This document shows, piece after piece, positions 1,095 through 60,758 of a stretch of 64,000 nt of DNA. The translations under genes and the position numbers were made by a program. The notes beneath the pieces are model-generated. The model did no database searches and had not been told where the DNA came from. It was given only the letters and a program-made list of their open reading frames with translations. Positions within the stretch are counted from its first letter, which is position 1, and every line of letters starts with the position of its first letter. The DNA comes from Octopus sinensis (taxonomy: Eukaryota). The stretch covers positions 52,080,001-52,144,000 of the forward strand of contig NC_043003.1 of assembly GCF_006345805.1 (NCBI RefSeq), read 5' to 3'.

Positions 1095-1127
1095 GGCCGA
1101 AATTTTAAAGTTACTGTCACCCTATCT

Positions 1128-2381
1128 CTGATTCCCAACACGGCTTCGTGCCGAAGAGATCATGCTTGACCAACTTACTGGTAATGAAAGAATTGGTGAC
1201 GCGTATCATGGATGATGGTGACGCTGTTGACATCGTTTTATTGGACTTTGCCAAAGCTTTTGACTCGGTTAACCACCGCTTATTACTTGTCAAGCTTGAA
1301 GCATATAGTTTCCATCCGGATATTGTACGATGGGTTGGTGCCTTCCTCTCAGATCGCTCCTTCCAAGTCCAAGTTAATGGTTCGCTGTCCGACGTCTCCA
1401 GTGCGAGCAGTGGCGTGCCTCAAGGTTCAGTGCTTGGGCCCTTATTGTTTTTAGTCTTCATAAATGACTTGCCCGACGACCTCACGCAACACACCCTTCT
1501 ATTTGCCGATGATGTCAAACTGGTCGCTCCTCGCGGTGATATAGATGATCTTCGTCGATGTCTCCACCAAGTTTGGAGATGGTCTAACGAATGGGACCTG
1601 TGTCTGAACGTGTCAAAGTGCTGTCATCTGCCTGTTGGCTCTTCTCCTGCAACTCAACTTGATTTCGAGCCGGGTCGTCTGCTGCTGGAGAGGACCGACC
1701 AGGTAAAGGACCTGGGTATCTTGGTGGATTTTTCCTTTTCACCTTCGGCCTAATGCGTCCATGCTGCCAACAAAGCACGCAGAGTTCTGTTTTTGATTCG
1801 ACGGTCATTCGGAATGCTCACAGCAGCCATATTCCTACTGCTCTATGTCATGCTTGTGAGACCCATGTTGGAGTACGGGATTCAAGCCTCTTTTCCTTAT
1901 CTCCTCAAAGACATACATCATCTCGAAAGAGTCCAGAAGCTGGCTACCCGCATGGTTCTTGGTCTCAAGCATTTGTCTTATGAAGAAAGGCTGAAGACGC
2001 TCGACCTTTATTTTCTAGAAAAACGACGACGCCGTGATGATCTCATTCTTGCTCACAACATCATAAGCGGAAAATGTAACCTCTTGAAAGAACTATTCTT
2101 CACTCCTGCTCCAGAGCGTCGGCTGCGGGGTTACTCCGAAAAGCTCTATCTGCGACGATTTCATCTCAATCGAAGGAGAGGGGCTTTCTCCGTCCAGGTT
2201 GCGAATCCGTGGAATAAGCTGCCGGACGAGATAGTGAAGATGCCGACAACCGCTCGGTTCAAAGTCTCTCTTGACCAGAAATGGCCTGAACTCTTTGCAT
2301 GAACACCCTCCCTGTACATAACTCCATGCCCCCCTACATGGCCTTGCCTTTTGAGCCAAAAAATTAATTAACTTAACTTAA
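1128..2381 (+). mobile_element. 5'-truncated CR1/L2-group LINE (RT domain to 3' tail), one in-frame stop at 1751-1753
   Basis: ORFs 1148-1753 and 1793-2302 carry LDFAKAFDSVNH, SGVPQGSVLGPLLF, LFADD, VKDLGI and ERVQKLATRM..LSYEERL motifs. Ends in a short TTAAC-type repeat tail. Confidence 0.93.
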
Positions 2382-15105: not shown

Positions 15106-16508
15106 TACATAAACGGATATAATTAAAAATTATAATTAAAAGAAAACACACAACTGCTTGAGTCATATCAGGACATCACCAACACCACCACCACCACCAC
15201 TACCACTACCATCAACTTTGATCATTTTTATTCTCGCCTTCTGTTTCTTGCAGCTACTAAAAACAAAATCTCATGCCTAAAAGTACCCTTGAAAACTCGG
15301 ATATCGAAGCGGTTAGAAAAGTCCCACGTCTTTGGGATAATTCAGAGAAAGTATCCTGTTAATTATTAAAAGTAATTCTTACAAGTGTCCTATCTCTAGC
15401 GTAATCCACATAGTGGTGAGCCCTCCTCGCAAATCTCCATTGGATCTGGTCCTAAATCTTCGAGTAGCTCATATAGAGCACACATTCGTTGGTTGTTTGC
15501 GACACGAAGACCTGTGAAACTCAGGTGGTTTACTAATTCTATTCTTTGCTACGTTTTCTCCTCTTCGTCTCCAGACAATGGAATGGTATAACTTCGTAAA
15601 AGGTCCTCAGTTTTCTAGCAGTATTTCTCGATTATGGTTTCGGCGAGTGGGTATGATGAGACTGTTCGACCATCCTCGGGCCTAAAGCCATGGTGCAAGT
15701 GAGAGTAATGTTGGGATAGCAGCCTTCGACATCTGCTGATTTTCCTGTTGCCTGCTCTCTTCTTCTCTCCAATTTCTCGAGAAAGAAAATCCTCAAATGG
15801 CTTTTACTACCATAAGGGTAACAAGTGTGCCGTCTGACTTGCATGCCTTTCCTTGCTCGATGAACGGGAGCAGCCCCACATGTGAGCGGGATCTCCTTTA
15901 ACTCGTCTTCAGACGGCTTCCAAAACGCTCCCTATCTTCGCGAAGAAGGGGTACGCTAACTTTCTCCTTGTTCGCTCTTACATAAAATCTTCGGACAAGG
16001 AAACATAGTCCCTACTGATACACTTTTGACAGATTTATTTCTCTGGCAAGGTTTTGTTTTTCGTATCTAGAATTTCCCTGTTAATTGTAACACCCGCAGA
16101 GTGTGGAAATTATGTTAAAAGCCAAAGAAAGCAGGAAAATTGTTTTGTTCTACTTTTATTCAGTGAATATTAGATTCTACTTTATTTCTGGAACGTTCAA
16201 ATGATTATATTGACCTCAGAAACGTCAACGACCTGATGACCTCTACATAGTTTAGCAGTCAGCACTGAGTAACATCATATCGCAACGAAACAATTTCTCT
16301 GCGGTTGGCTAATGGCCACCATAGACGATGATCCAAGCGATTGGACAGCAGTCATGCATGGACATGCAAGCACACATACGCACGAACGCGCACGAACGCA
16401 CATACTCATGCATACACACATATACACGCAAACACATATGTACGTATTTATGTTTACATACATGTATGAGTGTGTGTGTGTGTGTGTATTATATACAGAG
16501 AGAAGGAG

Positions 16509-16901: not shown

Positions 16902-16935
<34 letters not shown>

Positions 16936-17162
16936 TATTATATAATATATATATATATTATATATATATTACATTATATAAAAGGGCTTAGTAAAATAAA
17001 TTACTTTGCCGCATACTGAACTCATTAGAAATAGCAGCTAAAAACTTTTTTAAGGCTATTTCTAATACTTAAAGAAAATCTCTCTCATATATAGTGTTTG
17101 CATAATTTAACTCACAAAAGTTTGGGGGTAATGACATCGAAAAATCAAATGCTAAGGTTATT

Positions 17163-17215
17163 CGAGAAAGTACGTTTCAAGATTAGTCAAAAACAACATT
17201 TCTATCATCGGCTCG
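17163..17215 (-). ncRNA. Hammerhead-like motif, array left arm (further copies at 17710-17760 and 18257-18308)
   Basis: Reverse complement of the motif described at 19676. This copy and the 17710 copy each have a lesion or sequencing error in the stem III palindrome. Confidence 0.62.
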
Positions 17216-19675
17216 GAAATTCCTTGGTTTGGATTTGGAAACACTGAAAATAAGAACATACCCTCTCGAAGATCTGCTCCCAACTAACAGTGCCAGCAAA
17301 TTCAAAATAAGCAAGCGAAGAATCTCTGTTCCCCTTTCCACCAGCATGGGTTAAAATCATCAAACTCTATGCTTATTTCGGTAAAGTCCGAAGCATTAAT
17401 CAGAGGGAGATTAATTATAATTTCAACAATTGAGGGCAAAATTAATTAATTATTAATCAATTTCACCAAGTGTTCAGTATGCAAAGGGACCATTCAAGGC
17501 GAATTCAAATTATTACATTATATAAAAGGGCTTAGTAAAATAAATTACTTTGCCGCAATACTGAACTCATTAGAATAGCAGCTAAAAAAAACTTTTTTAA
17601 GGCTATTTCTAATACTTAAAGAAAATCTCTCTCATATATAGTGTTTGCATAATTTAACTCACAAAAGTTTGGGGGTAATGACATCGAAAAATCAAATGCT
17701 AAGGTTTATCGAGAACGTAGTTTCAAGATTAGTCAAAACAACATTTCTATCATCGGCTCGGAAATTCCTTGGTTGGATTTGGAAACACTGAAAATAAGAA
17801 CATACCCTCTCGAAGATCTGCTCCCAACTAACAGTGCCAGCAAATTCAAAATAAGCAAGCGAAGAATCTCTGTTCTCCCCTTTCCACCAGCGTGGGTTAA
17901 AATCATCAAACTCTATGCTTATTTCGGTAAAGTCCGAAGCATTAATCAGAGGGAGATTAATTATAATTTCAACAATTGAGGGCAAAATTAATTAATTATT
18001 AATCAATTTCACCAAGTGTTCAGTATGCAAAGGGACCATTCAAGGCGAATTCAAATTATTACATTATATAAAAGGGCTTAGTAAAATAAATTACTTTGCC
18101 GCATACTGAACTCATTAGAAATAGCAGCTAAAAAACTTTTTTAAGGCTATTTCTAATACTTAAAGAAAGAAAAATTCTCTCATATATAGTGTTTGCATAA
18201 TTTAACTCACAAAAGTTTGGGGGTAATGAATCGAAAAATCAAATGCTAAGGTTATTCGAGAACGTACGTTTCAAGATTAGTCAAAACAACATTTCTATCA
18301 TCGGCTCGGAAATTCCTTGGTTTGGATTTGGAAACACTGAAAATAAGAACATACCCTCTCGAAGATCGCTCCCAACTAACAGTGCCAGCAAATTCAAATA
18401 AGCAAGCGAAGAATCTCTGTTCTCCCCTTTCCACCAGCGTGGGTTAAAATCATCAAACTCTATGCTTATTTCGGTAAAGTCCGAAGCATTAATCAGAGGG
18501 AGATTAATTATAATTTCAACAATTGAGGGCAAAATTAATTAATCTTCGAGAGGGTATGTTCTTATTTTCAGTGTTTCCAAATCCAAACCAAGGAATTTCC
18601 GAGCCGATGATAGAAATGGTGTTTTGACTAATCTGAAACGTACGTTCTCGAATAACCTTAGCATTTGATTTTTCGATGTCCTTACCCCCAACTTGTTGAG
18701 TTAAATTATGCAAACACTATATATGAGAGAGATTTTCTTTAAGTATTAGAAATAGCCTTAAAAGTTTTTTAGCTGCTATTTCTAATGAGTTCAGTATGCG
18801 GCAAAGTAATTTATTTTACTAAGCCCTTTTATATAATGTAATAATTTGAATTCGCCTTGAATGGTCCTTGCATACTGAACACTTGGTGAAATTGATTAAT
18901 AATTAATTAATTTTGCCCTCAATTGTTGAAATTATAATTAATCTCCCTCTGATTAATGCTTCGGACTTTACCGAAAAAGCATAGAGTTGATGATTTAACC
19001 CACGCTGGTGGAAAGGGGAGAACAGAGATTCTTCGCTTGCTATTTGAATTTGCTGGGCACTGTTAGTTGGGAGCAGATCTTCGAGAGGGTATGTTCTTAT
19101 TTTCAGTGTTCAAATCCAAACCAAGGAATTTCCGAGCCGATGATAGAAATGTTGTTTTTGACTAATCTTGAAACGTACGTTCTCGAATAACCTTAGCATT
19201 TGATTTTTCGATGTCATACCCCCAAAACTTTTGTGAGTTAAAATTATGCAAACACTATATATGAGAGAGATTTTCTTTAAGTATTAGAAATAGCCTTAAA
19301 AAAGTTTTTTAGCTGCTATTTCTAATGAGTTCAGTATGCGGCAAGTAATTTATTTTACTAAGCCCTTTTATATAATGTAATAATTTGAATTCGCCTTGAA
19401 TGGTCCCTTGCATACTGAACACTTGGTGAAATTGATTAATAATTAATTAATTTTGCCCTCAATTGTTGAAATTATAATTAATCTCCCTCTGATTAATGCT
19501 TCGGACTTTACCGAAATAAGCATAGAGTTTGATGATTTAACCCACGCTGGTGGAAGGGGAGAACAGAGATTCTTCGCTTGCTTATTTTGAATTTGCTGGC
19601 ATGTTAGTTGGGAGCAGATCTTCGAGAGGGTATGTTCTTATTTTCAGTGTTTCCAAATCCAAACCAAGGAATTTC

Positions 19676-19727
19676 CGAGCCGATGATAGAAATGTTGTTT
19701 TGACTAATCTTGAAACGTACGTTCTCG
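19676..19727 (+). ncRNA. Minimal type I hammerhead-like motif, array right arm (further copies at 18600-18650, 19133-19185 and 20216-20267)
   Basis: CGAG-CCGATGA-TAGAAATGTTGTTTTGACTAATCTT-GAAA-CGTACG-TT-CTCG. Stem I is CGAG/CTCG, the core is a U4C variant, stem III is the palindrome ACGTACGT, and the predicted site is GUU. Confidence 0.72.
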
Positions 19728-20619
19728 AATAACCTTAGCATTTGATTTTCGATGTCATTACCCCAAACTTTTGTGAGTTAAATTATGCAAACACTATATA
19801 TGAGAGAGATTTTCTTTAAGTATTAGAAATAGCCTTAAAAAAGTTTTTTAGCTGCTATTTCTAATGAGTTCAGTATGCGGCAAAGTAATTTATTTTACTA
19901 AGCCCTTTATATAATGTAATAATTTGAATTCGCCCTTGAATGGTCCCTTGCATACTGAACACTTGGTGAAATTGATTAATAATTAATTAATTTGCCCTCA
20001 ATGTGTTGAAATTATAATTAATCTCCCTCTGATTAATGCTTCGGACTTTACCGAAATAAGCATAGAGTTTGATGATTTAACCCACGCTGGTGGAAAGGGG
20101 AGAACAGAGATTCTTCGCTGCTTATTTTGAATTTGCTGGCACTGTTAGTGGGAGCAGATCTTCGAGAGGGTATGTTCTTATTTTCAGTGTTTCCAAATCC
20201 AAACCAAGGAATTTCCGAGCCGATGATAGAAATGTTGTTTTGACTAATCTTGAAACGTACGTTCTCGAATAACCTTAGCATTTGATTTTCGATGTCATTA
20301 CCCCCAAACTTTTGTGAGTTAAATTATGCAAACACTATATATGAGAGAGATTTTCTTTAAGTATTAGAAATAGCCTAAAAAAAAAGTTTTTAGCTGCTAT
20401 TTCTAATGAGTTCAGTATGCGGCAAAGTAATTTATTTTACTAAGCCCTTTATATAATGTAATAATTTGAATTCGCCTTGAATGGTCCCTTTGCATACTGA
20501 ACACTGGTGAAATTGATAATTAATTAATTATTTTTGCCCTCAATTGTTGAAATTATATATATATATATATATATATATAATAAATAAAATAAAACATGCA
20601 TATATATAAACATATATGT

Positions 20620-21400
20620 ACGTACCTACCTCTACATGTAACATACACACGCATATATGAGTACAGGACACCAAAAGAAGTCGAACACAATGAGAGAAAG
20701 AAAAACAGACACAAACCCAGGAACTGGACCATTTTTTAAAAACAACAAAAAAATAGAGTACAGGACAATTAACACAAAGAAAAAACCCACTTCTTCAGTC
20801 GCTATGGTTTCATCTACTCTACGTTTCGAAGGATAAAAGCGAGACGTATCTTCGACAAGAAACTTTCCTTCCTGCGAAAAGCAAATCAATTAAAATTCTG
20901 AGATCTTTTCGCAGAGGGGTAAAAAATGGTAACAAAAACAGGGCAGTAACGACAGTACAAATTATAAACAGTAAAAGACAGGACAAGGAAAAAACAAGAT
21001 AAGAAGGGCTGTTAACGCCGAACGAAAAAAAGTATTGCGAACGCGGAATTTTTTATGAACGACGAGCGGAGCAAAAAGAATTGTCGTCCGTTACCTTGAG
21101 AGGGCCAGGCCAGAAAGACAGCAGCGGAAGTCTCGTCGCGGGTGAACGACGGGAGGGGGAGGAGCAAGACAAAGGGAGAGAAGAAGGGGAATGGCTGCGA
21201 GGAAACCATGAAGAATGGAGAGGGGGAGAGAGAGAGTGAAGAATGAGAGAGAGGAAGAGAAAAGTTAAGTAGAGGAAAGGAAATCAAAGAATGAAGGCTG
21301 AGAAAGGGATGGACAGAAAGGTTAAGAGTGCGCATCAAAGTTAATATCAAGAACAAAACTTGATATAAAGAACAATTTTACTTAAAGGGCTGCGTGGCGT
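20620..21400 (-). mobile_element. Probable Penelope-like 3' remnant (related copy at 26690-27330)
   Basis: Shares CTTCWTCAGT..TCTACTC..TTTCGA and the downstream purine-rich architecture with 26760-26900. Flanked by (TA)n. The family assignment is inference. Confidence 0.4.
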
Positions 21401-29475: not shown

Positions 29476-30846
29476 TTAGTTAGTTAGTTAGTTAGTTAGT
29501 TAATTTGGCTCAAAAGCAAATAGCAAGGCCATGTAGGGGGACATGGAGTTAAGTACAGGGTGGTGTTCATGTAAAGAGTTCAGGCCACTTGAGGTCCAGG
29601 GAGGCTTTGAACAAAGCGGTCGTCGGCATCTTCACCATCTCGTCTGGCAGCTTGTTCCACGGATCCGCAACCCGGACGGAGAAAGCTCCTCTCCTTCGAT
29701 TTAGATGAAATCGTCGCAGGTAGAGCTTTTCGGAATGACCCCGCAGCCGACGCTCCGGAGCAGGAGTGAAGAACAGCTCTTTCGAGAGGTTACACTTCCC
29801 GCTTATGATGTTGTGGGCGAGAATGAGATCACCACGGCGGCGGCGTTTTTCAAGAGAACAAAGGTCGAGCGTCCTCAGCCTTTCTTCGTAGGACAAATTT
29901 TTGAGACCATGAACCATGCGGGTAGCCAGCCTCTGGACTCTTTCGAGGTGCTGTATGTCTTTGAGGAGATAAGGAGAAGAGGCTTGAATCCCATACTCCA
30001 ATATGGGTATCACCAGCGTGACATAGAGTGGCAGGAATATGGCTGCTGTGAGCATTCCGAATGACCGTCGAATCAAAAACAGAATTCCGCGCGCTTTGTT
30101 GGCAGCATGGACGCACTGGCCGAAGGCGAAAAGGAGGAATCCACCAAGATACCCAGGTCCTTTACCTGATCGGTCCTCTCCAGCAGCAGACGACCCGGCT
30201 CGAAATCAAGTTGAGTTGCAGGAGTAGAGCCGACAGGCAGATGACAGCACTTTGACACGTTCAGACACAGGTCCCAATCGTTAGACCACTTCCAAATTTG
30301 GTGGAGGCATCGACGAAGATCCTCTATACTACCGCGAGGAGCGACCAGTTTGATATCGTCGGCAAATAGAAGGGTGTGTTGCGTGAGGTCGTCGGGCAAG
30401 TCATTTATGAACTAAGACAACAAGGGCCAAAGCACTGAACCTTGAGGCACGCCACTGCTCGCACTGGAGACGTCGGACCGCGAACCATTAACTTGAACTT
30501 GGAAGGAGCGATCTGAGAGGAAGGCACCAACCCATCGTACAATATCCGGATGGAAACTATATGCTTGAAGCTTGACAAGTAGTAGGCGGTGGTTTACCGA
30601 GTCAAAAGCTTTGGCAAAGTCCAATAAAACGATGTCAACAGCATCACTATCATCGAGGATGCGCGTCACCAATTCTTCCATTACTAGTAAGTTGGTAAAG
30701 CATGATCTCTTCGGCACGAAGCTGTGTTGGGAATCAGTGATCGAGGCTGTGTTTAGGAGGTGGAGCATCATACTTTTCTTAAGGATGGTTTCGAACATCT
30801 TGCTGATTATTGATGTAAGGGAAACCGGTCGGTAGTTATCCTGGCT
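29476..30846 (-). mobile_element. 5'-truncated CR1/L2-group LINE, same family as 1128-2381, frameshifted
   Basis: NYRPVSLT, LDFAKAFDSVNH, SGVPQGSVL and LFADD motifs over ORFs 30412-30798, 30073-30399 and 29567-30076. (TAAC)n 3' tail at 29476-29502. Confidence 0.94.
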
Positions 30847-31542
30847 GCCTCAAATTTTGTGCTTTATTCAGTGCTACTAATTCCCATATCTTCAGATTAA
30901 TCTTGCAGATCTTCAAGAGTGTACTTATAACGGAGCAATGGACGGTCTTGGTGTCTGGCACTAGAGCTAAGCTAACCACAGAAGAGGGTTCTAGGCAAGC
31001 GAATGTCTTCCATATGTACCACAAGGTCAACCCATCTCAGTTGCGCTTTAATAAGGAAACACACTATATCTAGAACCCCTGTGATGCGGGCATTGCCTTG
31101 CAACTTGATGTTGCAAATTTAACTGCCAAAGCGCTACCTTTACGATAGCATGTTCGCAATATACATTCTTCTATCCACTAATTTCTCTTTTTCTCACCTG
31201 CCTCTATACCGCTACATTCCCTCTCTTAAAGTGCCGTTTTTTCTGCCTCACCTTTTTTATTTTCTATTCATTTTCTCTCTTCTCCTGTCCCCTCTCACCC
31301 TCTATTTCTATCTCTTTCTCTCTTGCTCTCTCCACCTCTACCTCTTCCTATCTCTTCATGATGAAACATCAGGAGAACAGCTTCAAAGCAAGGCTTTCTC
31401 TCTCTGCCACTCTCTTTACCTCTCTCTCTGTATCAACCTCTGGTCTCTATGTCCTTCGTTTTCTCTCTCTCTCTCTTCCCTCCCTCTCCTACTCTCTGCG
31501 TCACAGCCTGTCTGTCTCCCTCTCTCTCTCTCTCTCACACAC

Positions 31543-40812: not shown

Positions 40813-42984
40813 CTCATAAACAATATTCATGCTATTTGAGAATGTAAGTCAAAGTTAACTTTCTCAAAGTTATCTACAAAACGTAAGTGGTTAAGAAAAA
40901 TAAAATGTAACAGAGACGCGAATAGCAATAGAAAAAAGTTCTACATCATCATTATGTCAGGCCTCATTCTGGATCACAAAATGTACGGAGCCGTTCATCA
41001 CCGTAACTTATACTAACAGTCTTGGGTCACAGATCAGAGATGGAACCTGGTTACATTATAGAATAATTTTCCTACAAAATAGGTATTAGCTTCTTCCTTA
41101 CCGATCCTAATAGCCCTCTAATAGTCCTCTTCAGAGCGCCCTGCCACCGATTGTTGACAACTGCTCTTGTCAACTGCTGCTTTAGCTAAAATGCTAATCC
41201 TATCTCTGTAGGTTTTACGCGCCGAGAACAACGCATTCAGTCTCCTGCTATCGAGTCCCTGTATTTTATATGCGTCGAACGTGCAGATCACAAACTTATG
41301 GTCTGCGTAGCCTACCGGTTTATATTGTAAAAATACTTCTCTATACTCTGTATATTAACCTAACAAATACCCGATCAAGATACGATAGGGATGGTGCGAT
41401 ATGTTACTCCATGTCCGCACTGGCACATTCGGGAAAACTTGTCTGTAATTATCAGACAACTGGAAGCATTTGAGTAGTGGTTTCGTTAGGCGGGAAACGA
41501 TCCGGTGTTTGTGAATGTTGTTGTCGTTGAGTGTATTTCACGGGTATAAAAATGCTGATCAGTATTTTCATTTGTATTACTGTTCTTGTCGATACTTCTG
41601 TTTATTATATAAATATCGCTATCATTATTTTTGTAACTATTATTACAAATGGTTGATTGATTAATATGTAATTAATCAACTACACTTAATGATTTGTTAT
41701 TGCTTTTCATTTTCTTTAGTTTTCCTTACTAATTGGTATACCCAATTTATACACTGTTTGCATACCTTCAGTGAAAATCCCGTCTCATCCTCCCTACCCG
41801 TCTAAAAACACTCTCCAAGGCTGTCTGTGGTCCACTACTGACCTCATTTAACCATATAACTCCCTCATTTTCCTTCCTAACATTCTTACCCCTTCCCTTG
41901 TCTTATTCCCCACCCTTATACTAGCTTCCCCTCTACCACACCTTCATGTCTTCTCCTTCTTACTTCATATCTTCTTCCTCTCTAGCCCACCCTTGTAGTC
42001 ATCTCTCCCTTTTCTACTGCTACTTACATATTCAAAACATCCTTGAACTTTCTCTCTATCTATGACTTAGACCCCGTATTCATAGCAATTCTTCCTTGTC
42101 TTATTTTTCCGCCTGTTCTTGTGCATTCACTGACCCCATAATCTCGCACTTTTTTCTTACTATTTATATTGCTCGACTTGGTCTTTCATTCTTTCGGGGT
42201 CGATAAATTAAGCACCAGTGAAACACTAGGATTGATGTAATCGATAGTCCCCTCTCTGCAAATTTCAGGCTTTGTGCCTTTAATAGAAAGGATTATCATA
42301 GTTGTTCTATATTGACATTAATATTAATATTATTGTACTATTATTATCATCTCAACCATTATTATTTTTAGAATCGTAACAACGCCAGTTAAAATGCCTT
42401 GTGCAGTATTTGTTCATGTTCTTTATGCTCTGTGTTCAGATACCACCAAGGTCAACTTTACATTTCATCCCTCGGGATCAATAAAGTAAATGACTAGTCC
42501 TTGCTCCTCAAATTGGTCTTATGCCCAAATCAAAAACGAAATTATTATTTTGATTTTTGATTTTTCCAGTTTCAGCTTATGAGCTGAGGCCATGCTGGGG
42601 CACCGCCATTTATTGTTGGTATTGTTTTTTTTTTTGTTTGTTTGTTTTTTGTTAGACTGGCGAGCTGACCGAATCATGAGAGCCCCGGGAAACATGTCTT
42701 GCAATACTTCACATTCTGAGTTCGAACCCCGCTGAGATCAACTTTTCTCTTCATCTATCCAAATTGAAAGGCAAAATTAACCAGCAATTTTAAAGGATTG
42801 AGTTGGTCGATTCAATCGACTAGTACAACCCACTGCCCCAGTTGCTAGTCTTGTGTTTAAATGAGAAACAATTATTTGTATAACTATTTTTGCCACACCA
42901 GTTATCTCTACTTACCCCACTGCTCTAATCACGAATCCTTCGCAGAGCTCTATCAATACATTTGCCTCTAAAATTTCTTTTTTA

Positions 42985-54902: not shown

Positions 54903-56290
54903 AGACTCTTCTGCCGGTTTCGACGTATGAGGATCCTACAACCTGCTCTTACTTTGTCAGTCATAATGCTCATATTGAATGTGACATTTAAGTCCCGCCA
55001 ACGATTTGCAAAGTATGAGGATTACAGGTCAGTGCAGGTGGTATATTTGCAGCCGCTTTTCTCCTTTCTCTTGCACTCCGAAGCCTGTTAAAGCTGTTTG
55101 CAACAAAGTTTCTAATACCATGTTGACACAACGATCTCCATTTTGTTCGCTCCAAGGCTGTTCGCTCAAAGGTATTGTGAATTATCTTCACTGCTAAGAG
55201 GTTACTCTTCAGCTTGTCCTTATATCTGAGCCGTGGTCAACCAACATTCCTGTGGTCACTATCAACCTGGCTGTACATGAGGACTTTGAGTATTCTTTCG
55301 TCCCTCATTCTGATGACATGGCCAGCCCAGCACAATTGTGACTGCATAAGGAAACTCTCCATTCCACCAATCTTACAGTTGCTAAACAGGTCAGCATTAG
55401 AAACTCTGTCTTTTAGTGAATAACTGCAGATTGTCCTGAGACAGCCTTTATGGAAGATGTCGAGTTGGTTAATGTGTCGTCTAAAAGGTATCCACGATTC
55501 TGAGCCATACAAGAGTGTAGTAAGAATGGCAGCTTTATAGACTGGTACTTTGGTGTCAAGTTTGATGGCCCTTTCATTCCATAAGCGATGACGGAGTTTG
55601 CCAATTGCGTTGGTTGCCTTTGCAATACGGTTGACGATTTTATTATCAAGGGAAGCACTTGAATTCACATTACTACCTAGATATGTAAATGACATCACAC
55701 AATTTGGGTTTTCCCCATCAACATGTATAGGAGTGTGAGAAAAATTGTGAACTGGTGCCCTCTGCTTGACACCTCGAATTTGTTTATGAGTAGGGCAAGG
55801 TTGGTGGATTACTTCCGTCTTCTTTATGCTGATGGTCAAACCAAAGGCTTTACATGCAGCAGAAAACCGGCCTATAAGTTCCGGAGCTTCTTCTAAGGTG
55901 GTCGCTGTTAGTGCAGCATAACCTACAAAAAGTAGATCTCGAATGATACTGATGCATAGCAGTGTTCTGGCTTTGAAACACTGATGATTGAATAGTCGAC
56001 CACTTGTTCGAAACTGGAATTTGACACTACTTTGTATGTCATCAAAAGCATACCTCAGCATCACTGAAAAAAAGAGTGCAAACAAAACAGGGGTCATAAC
56101 ACAACCTTGGTTTCTGGGTTTTGTAACGTCGAAGGAAATCGAAGATTCCCACCGGACACGACAGCAACCTTCATTCCATCATGAAAAGAGATAACATTCA
56201 ACATTTTGTCGGGTATACCAAGCTTTTGCAGAACTTTCTATAGTACATGTCGGTTAACAGTGTCGAAGGCCTTAGTAAGGTCAACGAATA
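54903..56290 (-). mobile_element. 5'-truncated RTE-clade LINE
   Basis: FVDLTKAFDTVNR, QGCVMTPVLF, FGLTISIKKTEV, FTYLGS, LLYGSESW and WAGHVIRM motifs (ORF 55237-56097 and flanks). The catalytic ADD motif is decayed (LFVGY). Confidence 0.92.
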
Positions 56291-59356: not shown

Positions 59357-60758
59357 TTATTTATTTATTGCCCACAAGGGGCTAAACATAGAGTGGACAA
59401 ACAAGGACAGACAAAGATATTAAGTCGATTACATCGACTCCAGTGCGTAACTGGTACTTAATTTATCGGCCCCGAAAGGATGAAAGGCAAAGTCGACCTC
59501 GGCGAAATTTGAGCTCAGAACATAACGACAGACGAAATACCTATTTCTTTACTACCCACAAGGGGCTAAACACAGAGAAGACAAACAAGGACAGACAAAC
59601 GGATTAAGTCGATTATATCGATCCCAGCGCGTAACTGATACTTATTTAATCAACCCGCGAGCATGAGTTACAAGCTCGCTCAATGGCATCTTTTTGACCC
59701 CGGGCAGTTGTTGTAGGTGAATCCCTACATCATCGGGGAACCCATTTACAAATGCCAGTCGGGCTGCTCTCTCCATTCCTTCTCCGGCAAAACCGGCCAG
59801 AGTCGCTAGCCTTCTAGCTTCCGCCGCAAAATCATCCACCTGGCCTCCCGTCCACCTGATTGCACCCAGCTTAGCGAAAGCTGTGTACTCGCATTCTGTG
59901 TATGCGTCACACAAGCGCCGCTCTATATTCCCATCGCAGAGCCGTTCTTTTTCGTCCATTTCCAGGTAAAGCGACAACGCACTTCCTTCCAAATACAGGG
60001 CCATAAGACTCGCCACGTCGCTTATGCCCTGCAGTCTCGCCACCAGCCTGATTTTCTGAATCCAGGCCACTACATCGCCTTCGCCGTTAAAAGGTCTGAC
60101 GACGTCACTGGCGATCCTAATTTTTGCCGACATCGTGTTGACAAAAATGTTGAAAAAAATGTGAACGCTGACTAAATGCCGAAATAGCTTGTGGTTGATG
60201 AAAGGAGCACAACAGAACAAGGAAATAGGAAACAGAAGTGCAACAGGGTCTTACCTGACAGGGGATGAAGTCGGATGGCCTTCAGCCAACTTGCTCGCGT
60301 TTCGTCGTCTCCGTGCCTTGCTCCGGTCTGTCGCCACCGCTCGATGCCGCACGTGCCTTTTGTCGCTCACTTCCGCTTCCGCCGGCGCATGCGCCCTGCA
60401 AGACCTGTAAGCATCACTTCCGCTCCCGCCCGTCCCGTCACACTCCTTCATCACCACACCACAAGGATGAAAGGCAAAGTCGACCTCGGCGGAATTTGAA
60501 CTCAGAACGTAGCGGCAGACGAAATACCTATTTCTTTATTACCCACAAGGGGCTAAACACAGAGGGGACAAACAAGGACAGACATAGGTATTAAGTCGAT
60601 TACATCGACCCCAGTGCGTAACTGGTACTTAATTTATCGACCTCGAAAGGATGAAAAGCAAAGTCGACCTCGGCGGAATTTGAACTCACAACGTAACGCA
60701 GACGAAATACCGCTAAGCATTTCGCCCGGCGTGCTAACGATTCTGCCAGCTCGCCTCC
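59357..60758 (-). mobile_element. Tandem SINE family A multimer interrupted by an LTR-element fragment
   Basis: Head at 60758 and repeated units. The SINE sequence breaks at ..ATCAACCCG (59657) and resumes at AGGATGAAAGGC (60464). Confidence 0.85.
59658..60463 (-). mobile_element. LTR retrotransposon fragment (putative 5' LTR 60190-60458 + gag-like ORF)
   Basis: GC-rich island. Minus strand begins TGTGGTGATGAAGGAG and the segment ends CTCCTTTCATCAACCACA (TG..CA with inverted termini). ORF MSAKIRIASDVVRPFNGEGDVVAWIQK..LYLEGSALSLY..AFVNGFP is gag-like. Confidence 0.8.

Follow-up and report, generated by a model that had tools for sequence, protein, structure and literature searches.

About a thousand two-armed insertions of a non-coding hammerhead-motif repeat in TA runs of Octopus sinensis, and their probable origin by two-site Penelope-type priming

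How does a single insertion come to consist of two tandem arrays that point away from each other and end, on either side, at two different places of the same repeat unit? This question is raised by a 64,000-nucleotide stretch of Octopus sinensis DNA (contig NC_043003.1, positions 52,080,001 to 52,144,000; the whole stretch is called the window below), in which an insertion at 16967-20557 is made of two arrays of one 546-nt unit in opposite orientation, with (TA)n on both sides. The genome is 2.72 Gb in size and rich in microsatellites. An earlier note, made from the letters alone, had described two outward arms that meet 5'-to-5' near 18542, asymmetrically and with an overlap of a few nt, and that end in (TA)n at two unit points about 95 nt apart, neither of them the cleavage site of the hammerhead ribozyme. 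These descriptions were confirmed, as was the orientation given for the ribozyme, which lies on the right arm's plus strand. When unit positions are measured on a clean 546-nt genomic unit, the left arm runs from unit 368 to 307 via two full units and is tail-less at its outer end (unit 301-307), while the right arm runs from unit 1 to 402 via three full units and carries a tail at its outer end; the outer ends are thus 95-101 nt apart on the unit (301-307 vs 402). The parts of the insertion are as follows.

16935..16966, no strand: left (TA)n target tract
16967..18543, minus strand: left arm, 2.9 units, 1577 bp, outer end at site A, inner end at unit 368
18542..18543: asymmetric head-to-head junction with 2-nt microhomology, the arms overlapping by 2 nt, 5'-to-5'
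18542..20557, plus strand: right arm, 3.7 units, 2016 bp, inner end at unit 1, outer end at site B
20345..20557, plus strand: structured module around both end sites (a hairpin, a long stem enclosing site A, and an AT-rich hairpin before site B)
20456..20557, plus strand: terminal tail of about 101 nt between sites A and B, at the right end only
20558..20579, no strand: right (TA)n target tract

Over 8 segments, the units of the window differ from the clean unit by 30 substitutions and 48 indels, of which 35 lie in homopolymers, so that, as claimed earlier, most of the differences are indels. The two flanks are unrelated to each other, the left one being single-copy in the assembly, and an empty (TA)n allele of this insertion was not found in the assembly. 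No open reading frame (ORF) of at least 120 aa is present in the element, nor the reverse transcriptase (RT) plus GIY-YIG frame of an autonomous Penelope-like element; six-frame translation of the unit gave an 80-codon stop-free stretch without ATG.

The insertion in the window is no chance arrangement and belongs to a large family, in that the genome contains about a thousand two-armed insertions of this 546-base non-coding hammerhead-motif repeat in TA runs (the unit is about 568 nt in older subfamilies, and the targets are microsatellite or AT-rich sequence, (TA)n). Exact ends numbered 916 at site A (unit 301) and 1048 at site B (unit 402) genome-wide, as opposed to 0 for the reversed-pattern controls. 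For closer study, 142 stretches were assembled: 40 around the matches of a genome search with the unit (315 matches, from 40 of 1271 candidate regions), plus locus L120, and, from contig C1, where both end lists are complete (78 A and 97 B), every one of the 36 pairs as well as the first 65 of 103 ends without a partner. It was found that 251 of 254 TA-facing arm ends lie at 296-316 or 392-408 in a sample that was partly chosen by these very ends, and that the sample picked by interior likeness gave the same picture (71 of 72, at 299-310 or 392-408). The ends are therefore two fixed sites and not variable permutations. The earlier note had named fixed ends common to all genomic copies as the finding that would speak against its account, and the tabulation turned out that way. 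Since both ends are fixed genome-wide, end position is no evidence for a circular template.

The two ends are also paired. On C1, there are 36 neighbouring end pairs within 15 kb, of which 35 are head-to-head, 34 of these being A+B (p 7e-10), and none is tail-to-tail. Among the 111 head-to-head junctions in the 142 stretches, 104 are A+B, 4 were scored B+B, 3 have a cut or deleted end, and none is A+A; in the first sample, which was blind to the ends, all 30 of 30 were A+B. Two of the four scored as B+B proved to be a rearranged A arm (L140) and a decayed second element (L212). Lone arms within (TA)n exist with either end, and some partner arms are just 13-16 nt long. Separately, short two-armed insertions were seen to be tandemly duplicated with their flanks at L138:2231-4266 and at L187/L188 (periods of about 1645 and 748 bp), by local duplication or by assembly duplication.

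The inner junctions and arm lengths revealed a second regularity. The 72 asymmetric inner junctions (one locus being counted twice) comprise 35 with 1-4 nt of microhomology, 10 blunt, 6 with longer overlaps, and 21 with inserts, some of them templated. The majority of insertions are short: median arm lengths are 252 and 289 nt, a third of the 142 arms exceed one unit, and the longest arm has 17 units. Of the 71 A+B loci on C1, 66 have a resolved junction (5 with gaps over 30 nt were dropped), and in these the A arm extends further upstream than the B arm in 27 and the B arm further in 15, which shows that neither arm can have arisen simply by fold-back copying of its partner. Nonetheless, arm lengths are coupled. 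The arms halt within 20 nt of one template position in 24 of the 66 loci (4.0 by permutation, and 0/20000 permutations as high), and this symmetry characterizes 23 of the 33 short insertions (5.5 by permutation) as opposed to 1 of the 33 long ones. Passage of the hammerhead site is likewise common to both arms, with 27 loci in which both arms pass, 27 in which neither does, and 12 in which one does (27/9/3/27, p 8e-8). The simplest joint reading is that two RTs in one complex copy one RNA, or one kind of RNA. Where the short insertions are symmetric, 8 of 23 junctions centre at unit 100-126, near the predicted cut (p 0.0008 for this interval, 0.04 after scanning), and 7 of 23 at unit 153-166; multi-lap arms show no pile-up of 5' ends at the cut site (2/107, with 5.3 expected). 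Equal arm lengths, i.e., within 12 nt, occur in 4 of 42 loci (0.67 expected, p 0.004), which is a post hoc hint only. Two further observations may be recorded here: in L168, L169, L228 and L137 the arms are nearly equal and offset by the tail length, as if two RTs had moved in lock-step, and unit 150-166, just 3' of the C5 run, is a second hot spot of mirror-symmetric junctions (L129, L132, L139, L153, L154, L227, L244), the junctions there being near-identical despite different flanks.

Each unit carries a minimal hammerhead of the Penelope type, for which self-cleavage is predicted. The insertion is a series of tandem non-coding units with a type I hammerhead in each, and has seven copies of the motif.

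17163..17215, minus strand: hammerhead motif copy with one helix III substitution (mutation or assembly error)
17710..17760, minus strand: hammerhead motif copy with helix III one base short (mutation or assembly error)
18257..18308, minus strand: hammerhead motif copy
18600..18650, plus strand: minimal type I hammerhead motif with U4C core and palindromic loop 3
19133..19185, plus strand: hammerhead motif copy
19676..19727, plus strand: hammerhead motif copy
20216..20267, plus strand: hammerhead motif copy

The motif occupies unit 58-110 and consists of a four-pair helix I, the core, a 25-nt helix II region, GAAA, and a one-pair helix III capped by a palindromic tetraloop; the cut is predicted after unit position 106. 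An Rfam search returned no ribozyme, whether at the gathering threshold or by E-value. The motif was read out with a script and by visual inspection, and its support is covariation between subfamilies: the core is canonical in the older subfamilies and a U4C variant in that of the window, the youngest, and among 6 sequences helix I shows a two-sided change of U-A to C-G, while two helix II pairs are changed one-sidedly with pairing kept. Overall, 94% of the hammerhead cells pair, compared to 29-53% for slid controls; a shuffle control for pairing was not significant (82/500). A second hammerhead-like parse, at unit 453-505, was dropped because of core changes in older subfamilies. Outside the insertion, short flank motifs at 16230-16250 and 20790-20840 resemble hammerhead halves by eye, neither being listed by a strict pattern scan, and other matches of the hammerhead-core pattern in the window lie at 40813, 33937 and 58747, all on the minus strand.

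The region around the two end sites has a structure of its own. Its predicted RNA fold has a z-score of -6.1; the long stem closes a loop that contains site A, and site B follows directly after a second hairpin. A sister family (best 40 of 2120 candidate regions scored; L181-L210, e.g., L210:1500-2150 and L194:970-1800) is about 70-80% alike across this module, has the same two-ended build and a hammerhead-like motif of its own, and preserves the module stem, in which 3 of 26 pairs are altered on both sides among 7 sequences, with a longer loop at site A. Further variants were seen at L112:9040-9260 and L199:2870-2990. The module is a putative RT-binding and start region for a borrowed enzyme. 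A purified Penelope-like protein of anole cuts AT-rich DNA on both strands, extends both, and is predicted to be a dimer, and its reverse transcription begins at two internal sites, which mark the limits of the tail (PMC11167929); by this analogy, A and B appear to behave as Penelope RT start sites bounding a tail, here of 101 nt.

The whole is best explained as two-site-primed insertion of a retrozyme by a Penelope-like RT-endonuclease dimer acting in trans, probably on a circular template, and we place the probability of this complete reading at roughly 0.68. An endonuclease-positive (EN+) dimer from another element would cut the (TA)n tract, and both DNA ends would be primed on retrozyme RNA, one at site A and the other at site B, as suggested by the in vitro work (PMC11167929). 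The coupled arms point to a single complex, in which both RTs would then copy the same RNA, or RNAs of one kind. In the short mirror-symmetric insertions, both would stop at one barrier or at the RNA 5' end, in some cases near the hammerhead cut, while long asymmetric insertions such as that of the window would arise from an endless circular template or, in a minority, from a linear read-through multimer; the two cDNA ends would be joined by microhomology-mediated repair. Two-site priming by a Penelope-type enzyme is the firmest part and highly probable: the proposal of the earlier note that both sides of a (TA)n break are primed gains support from the A+B pairing, the lone A arms and the unequal reach of the arms, and its multi-round copying and kinship with the inverted ends of Penelope are supported as well. 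That a circular monomer is the main template of multi-unit arms is favoured, although less strongly. More tentatively, a single RT dimer loaded on a single RNA, with one subunit per DNA end, might yield both classes, giving short mirror-image products from linear RNA, some of it cut by the hammerhead, and, through a multi-lap chase on the 546-nt circle, unequal arms.

Several results weigh against this reading and have to be set beside it. Two B+B insertions (L149 and L160) are true. The subfamily of the window has the U4C core, and U4C is reported to lower hammerhead activity, i.e., cleavage, in vitro (PMC3088659). Of the 8 symmetric junctions near the hammerhead, a single one begins precisely at the cut (unit 107), and 2 include bases upstream of it and are centred on the palindromic loop. 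Unprocessed RNA is the main in vitro substrate of the anole enzyme (PMC11167929). In 3 of 58 loci (L226, L126 and L160; the sharing spans L226:611-4172 and L126:611-2120), changes are shared at the same lap of both arms and not at other laps, such same-lap sharing accounting for 6 of 12 doubletons where 2.6 are expected; an earlier, looser pass also listed L131 and L143. In young arrays, a unit differs no more from those of the nearest other locus than from those of its own (0.12% vs 0.12-0.20%), so the uniform arrays could have been inherited from uniform parents. Lastly, an autonomous partner sharing the module was not found by BLAST, tblastn, nhmmer or motif scans: a PF01541 search of the genome for GIY-YIG candidates, with the best 150 of 5029 scored, gave 49 stretches around matches in which no partner sharing module or tail sequence was detected, 19 larger stretches around PF01541 matches were also used, and two patterns from contig loose ends gave no partner match.

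The partner search did bring up a young, multi-copy, (TA)n-targeting Penelope-like family with an intact 781-aa RT plus GIY-YIG frame and a second long frame upstream (L101:2720-6040, that is, within G000:C6:12728501-12738500, and L103-L115), which we take to be 'Neptune-like', a label of our own based on its cysteine motif. Its hammerhead motif has U3-A8 and a palindromic helix III, its end in (TA)n is fixed, and its tail is short. It frequently lies inside the TA flanks of retrozyme insertions; no sequence common to it and the unit was detected. Penelope fragments near L050/L051, L115, L116 and L132 were considered as partner and set aside as separate insertions. Elsewhere in the window, 1109-2302 (plus), 29567-30849 (minus), 55237-56178 (minus) and 59642-60250 (minus) are presumably broken LINE-type RT frames and a gag-like frame.

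The alternative that survives best retains the same two-site priming, with the template always being an uncleaved read-through transcript of an existing array and never a circle. It is unlikely, although it has to be taken seriously, and the evidence that bears on it is the distribution of variants among units. Same-lap sharing cannot come from a monomeric circle and needs a linear heterogeneous multimer or gene conversion, which in L226 and L126 would be between the inverted arms, and the in-register sharing between the arms of L226, L126 and L160 is thus in favour of a linear template, as are the dominance of unprocessed RNA in vitro, the poor cleavage of minimal hammerheads (PMC4209133), here with U4C in addition, and the passages through the cut site, of which 318 of 323 are normally spaced (3 lack one base and 2 have short duplications), since unscarred sites fit a linear template as well. 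However, 55 of the 58 loci have no in-register sharing, and lap-matched sharing between loci is absent, single-unit changes not being common to loci at the same lap (3/17, with 20% expected). A daughter copied from a linear transcript can at most equal its parent in length, and fixing a new change in all units takes a one-unit bottleneck and renewed growth. Such fixation was indeed observed: 38 young arrays, less than 1% divergent, fall into 12 haplotypes that differ by single steps, each fixed across up to 14 units (one of the 12, L068, rests on few units), and 7 of the 58 two-armed multi-lap loci have between them 13 changes that are fixed in all units of the two arms and that the five nearest loci lack, 8 of these changes being missing from every sampled locus. 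One-unit bottlenecks with regrowth are what rolling-circle copying gives, and the uniform arrays therefore favour the circular monomer. A comparison of the haplotypes of young arrays turned up no parent in which just one unit carries a change that its daughter has fixed. None of the sequencing runs listed as containing the family is on record as RNA, which counts neither for nor against a circular transcript. A circular template, one of the two forms named in the earlier note, is likely on the indirect evidence of array uniformity and unscarred cut sites; it draws no support from the end positions, and the three loci with same-lap sharing are exceptions to it.

A more doubtful alternative is that priming occurs once, at B, and that the cDNA then self-primes and copies back until it stops at A. 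The near-perfect palindromes that make up 23 of the 33 short insertions, several of them centred on self-complementary spots, would suit such a fold-back, and palindromic Penelope junctions have been read as self-priming (PMC3846280). A fold-back copy, however, cannot exceed its template, whereas 27 of 66 loci have the longer arm on the A side, in one case with 17 units against a third of one; moreover, lone A arms exist, and the junction in the window is asymmetric. Self-priming is thereby excluded for the long class, and may apply to part of the short class. Of slightly lower probability still is growth in place, in which a short two-armed insertion would later have expanded in the manner of a satellite, by unequal crossover or slippage, as has been suggested for retrozyme arrays (bioRxiv 10.64898/2026.07.22.740005). 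A derived base in three consecutive inner units of L226 suggests some duplication or conversion at the DNA level, and a few doubletons within the same arm point the same way. Nonetheless, adjacent units resemble each other no more closely than distant or opposite-arm ones do, in young arrays (divergence of 0.16%, 0.16% and 0.12-0.20%, respectively) as in older ones (0.61%, 0.60% and 0.57-0.67%), which argues against expansion after insertion; both arms are multi-unit together, and an arm shorter than one unit holds no repeat from which to expand.

It is very improbable that the DNA ends anneal at any AT-rich point of a circular or multimeric RNA, as the variably permuted ends of the earlier note would imply: both ends do have TA-like microhomology to the target and some jitter (A at 297-316, B at 392-408), but there are two end classes only, paired one-to-one, although the unit has other AT-rich stretches. 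Least credible of all is an artefact of fold-back chimeric long reads in the assembly, for although the homopolymers of the window are noisy and no listed contig bridges its junction at 18542, so that this particular doubt of the earlier note is settled for the family and not for the window's own junction, the family comprises over 100 loci with differing junctions and a strict A+B rule, the window's flanks are mutually unrelated with the left one single-copy, and the Logan contigs of an independent run from another organism (X5) contain 44 left-to-right, i.e., head-to-head, joints (15 shown, depth 46-180, 6 of these near-symmetric), by which the two-arm design does not depend on this assembly.

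If the more tentative reading, of one RT dimer on one linear or circular RNA, is true, double rolling-circle reverse transcription and ribozyme cleavage would have left about a thousand in vivo records in this genome, and retrozyme arrays would be born whole. The family provides countable rules, namely, a tailed and a tail-less end per insertion, coupled arms, two junction regimes, and near-uniform haplotype arrays. It speaks against expansion of arrays where they sit, and supplies, for reconstitution, a minimal RNA whose start module is defined and covarying.

Among known systems, L1 twin priming also primes from both target ends and gives a 5'-to-5' inversion, with poly(A), a variable second site and non-overlapping arms. 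The insertions described here are different from it, in that both sites are fixed and both arms copy the same sequence. They are closer to EN+ Penelope-like insertions, which often have an inverted 5'-truncated copy and a tail of 30-40 nt at one end only (PMC8557442, PMC3846280), and with which they have in common the head-to-head arms, the one-ended tail, two fixed end sites, a minimal hammerhead, microsatellite or AT-rich targets, and palindromic or microhomology junctions. In contrast to them, there is no ORF here, the tail has 101 nt, and tandem units, as many as 17, can make up both arms; the pairing of a tailed with a tail-less arm is near-obligate (104/111), whereas the accessible portions of the Penelope papers call it 'often' or 'optional'. 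The way in which these elements come by their tail and by their tandem and inverted structures is described as still undefined (PMC8557442). The in vitro work on the anole protein showed no strand difference in start site, unlike the A+B pairing (PMC11167929). The hammerheads of metazoan Penelope-like elements likewise have a short helix I, a long helix II, a one-pair helix III and a palindromic loop of the dimer type (PMC4209133); the youngest subfamily here differs from them in having U4C, and U.U or G.U at the base of helix II rather than G10.1-C11.1.

The animal non-LTR retrozymes (PMC7229834; bioRxiv 10.64898/2026.07.22.740005) are likewise non-coding tandem units with a type I hammerhead and low GC, for which a circular RNA intermediate and Penelope-type mobilisation have also been put forward. 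That retrozymes are circular-RNA repeats mobilised by Penelope-like elements is a proposal (PMC7229834, PMC4209133), shared by the 2026 preprint with a leaning to local tandem growth (bioRxiv 10.64898/2026.07.22.740005), and circular templates were proposed for more-than-unit reverse transcription in PMC4209133. In the freely accessible literature that was searched, no account was found of two-armed multi-unit retrozyme arrays, of near-obligate pairing of a tailed with a tail-less arm, or of coupled arm lengths, and the accessible portions of the two retrozyme papers contain no description of two-armed inverted arrays with Penelope-type ends. The unit of 546-568 nt is longer than the 170-400 nt reported for animal retrozymes, which is a reported range and not a strict criterion, and the arrays appear to be born multimeric and not grown in place. 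Inverted copies, tails and palindromic junctions are already known, for autonomous elements; the present insertion is well supported as a non-autonomous Penelope-type retrozyme, and its family ties retrozymes to the Penelope insertion mechanism by structure instead of co-occurrence.

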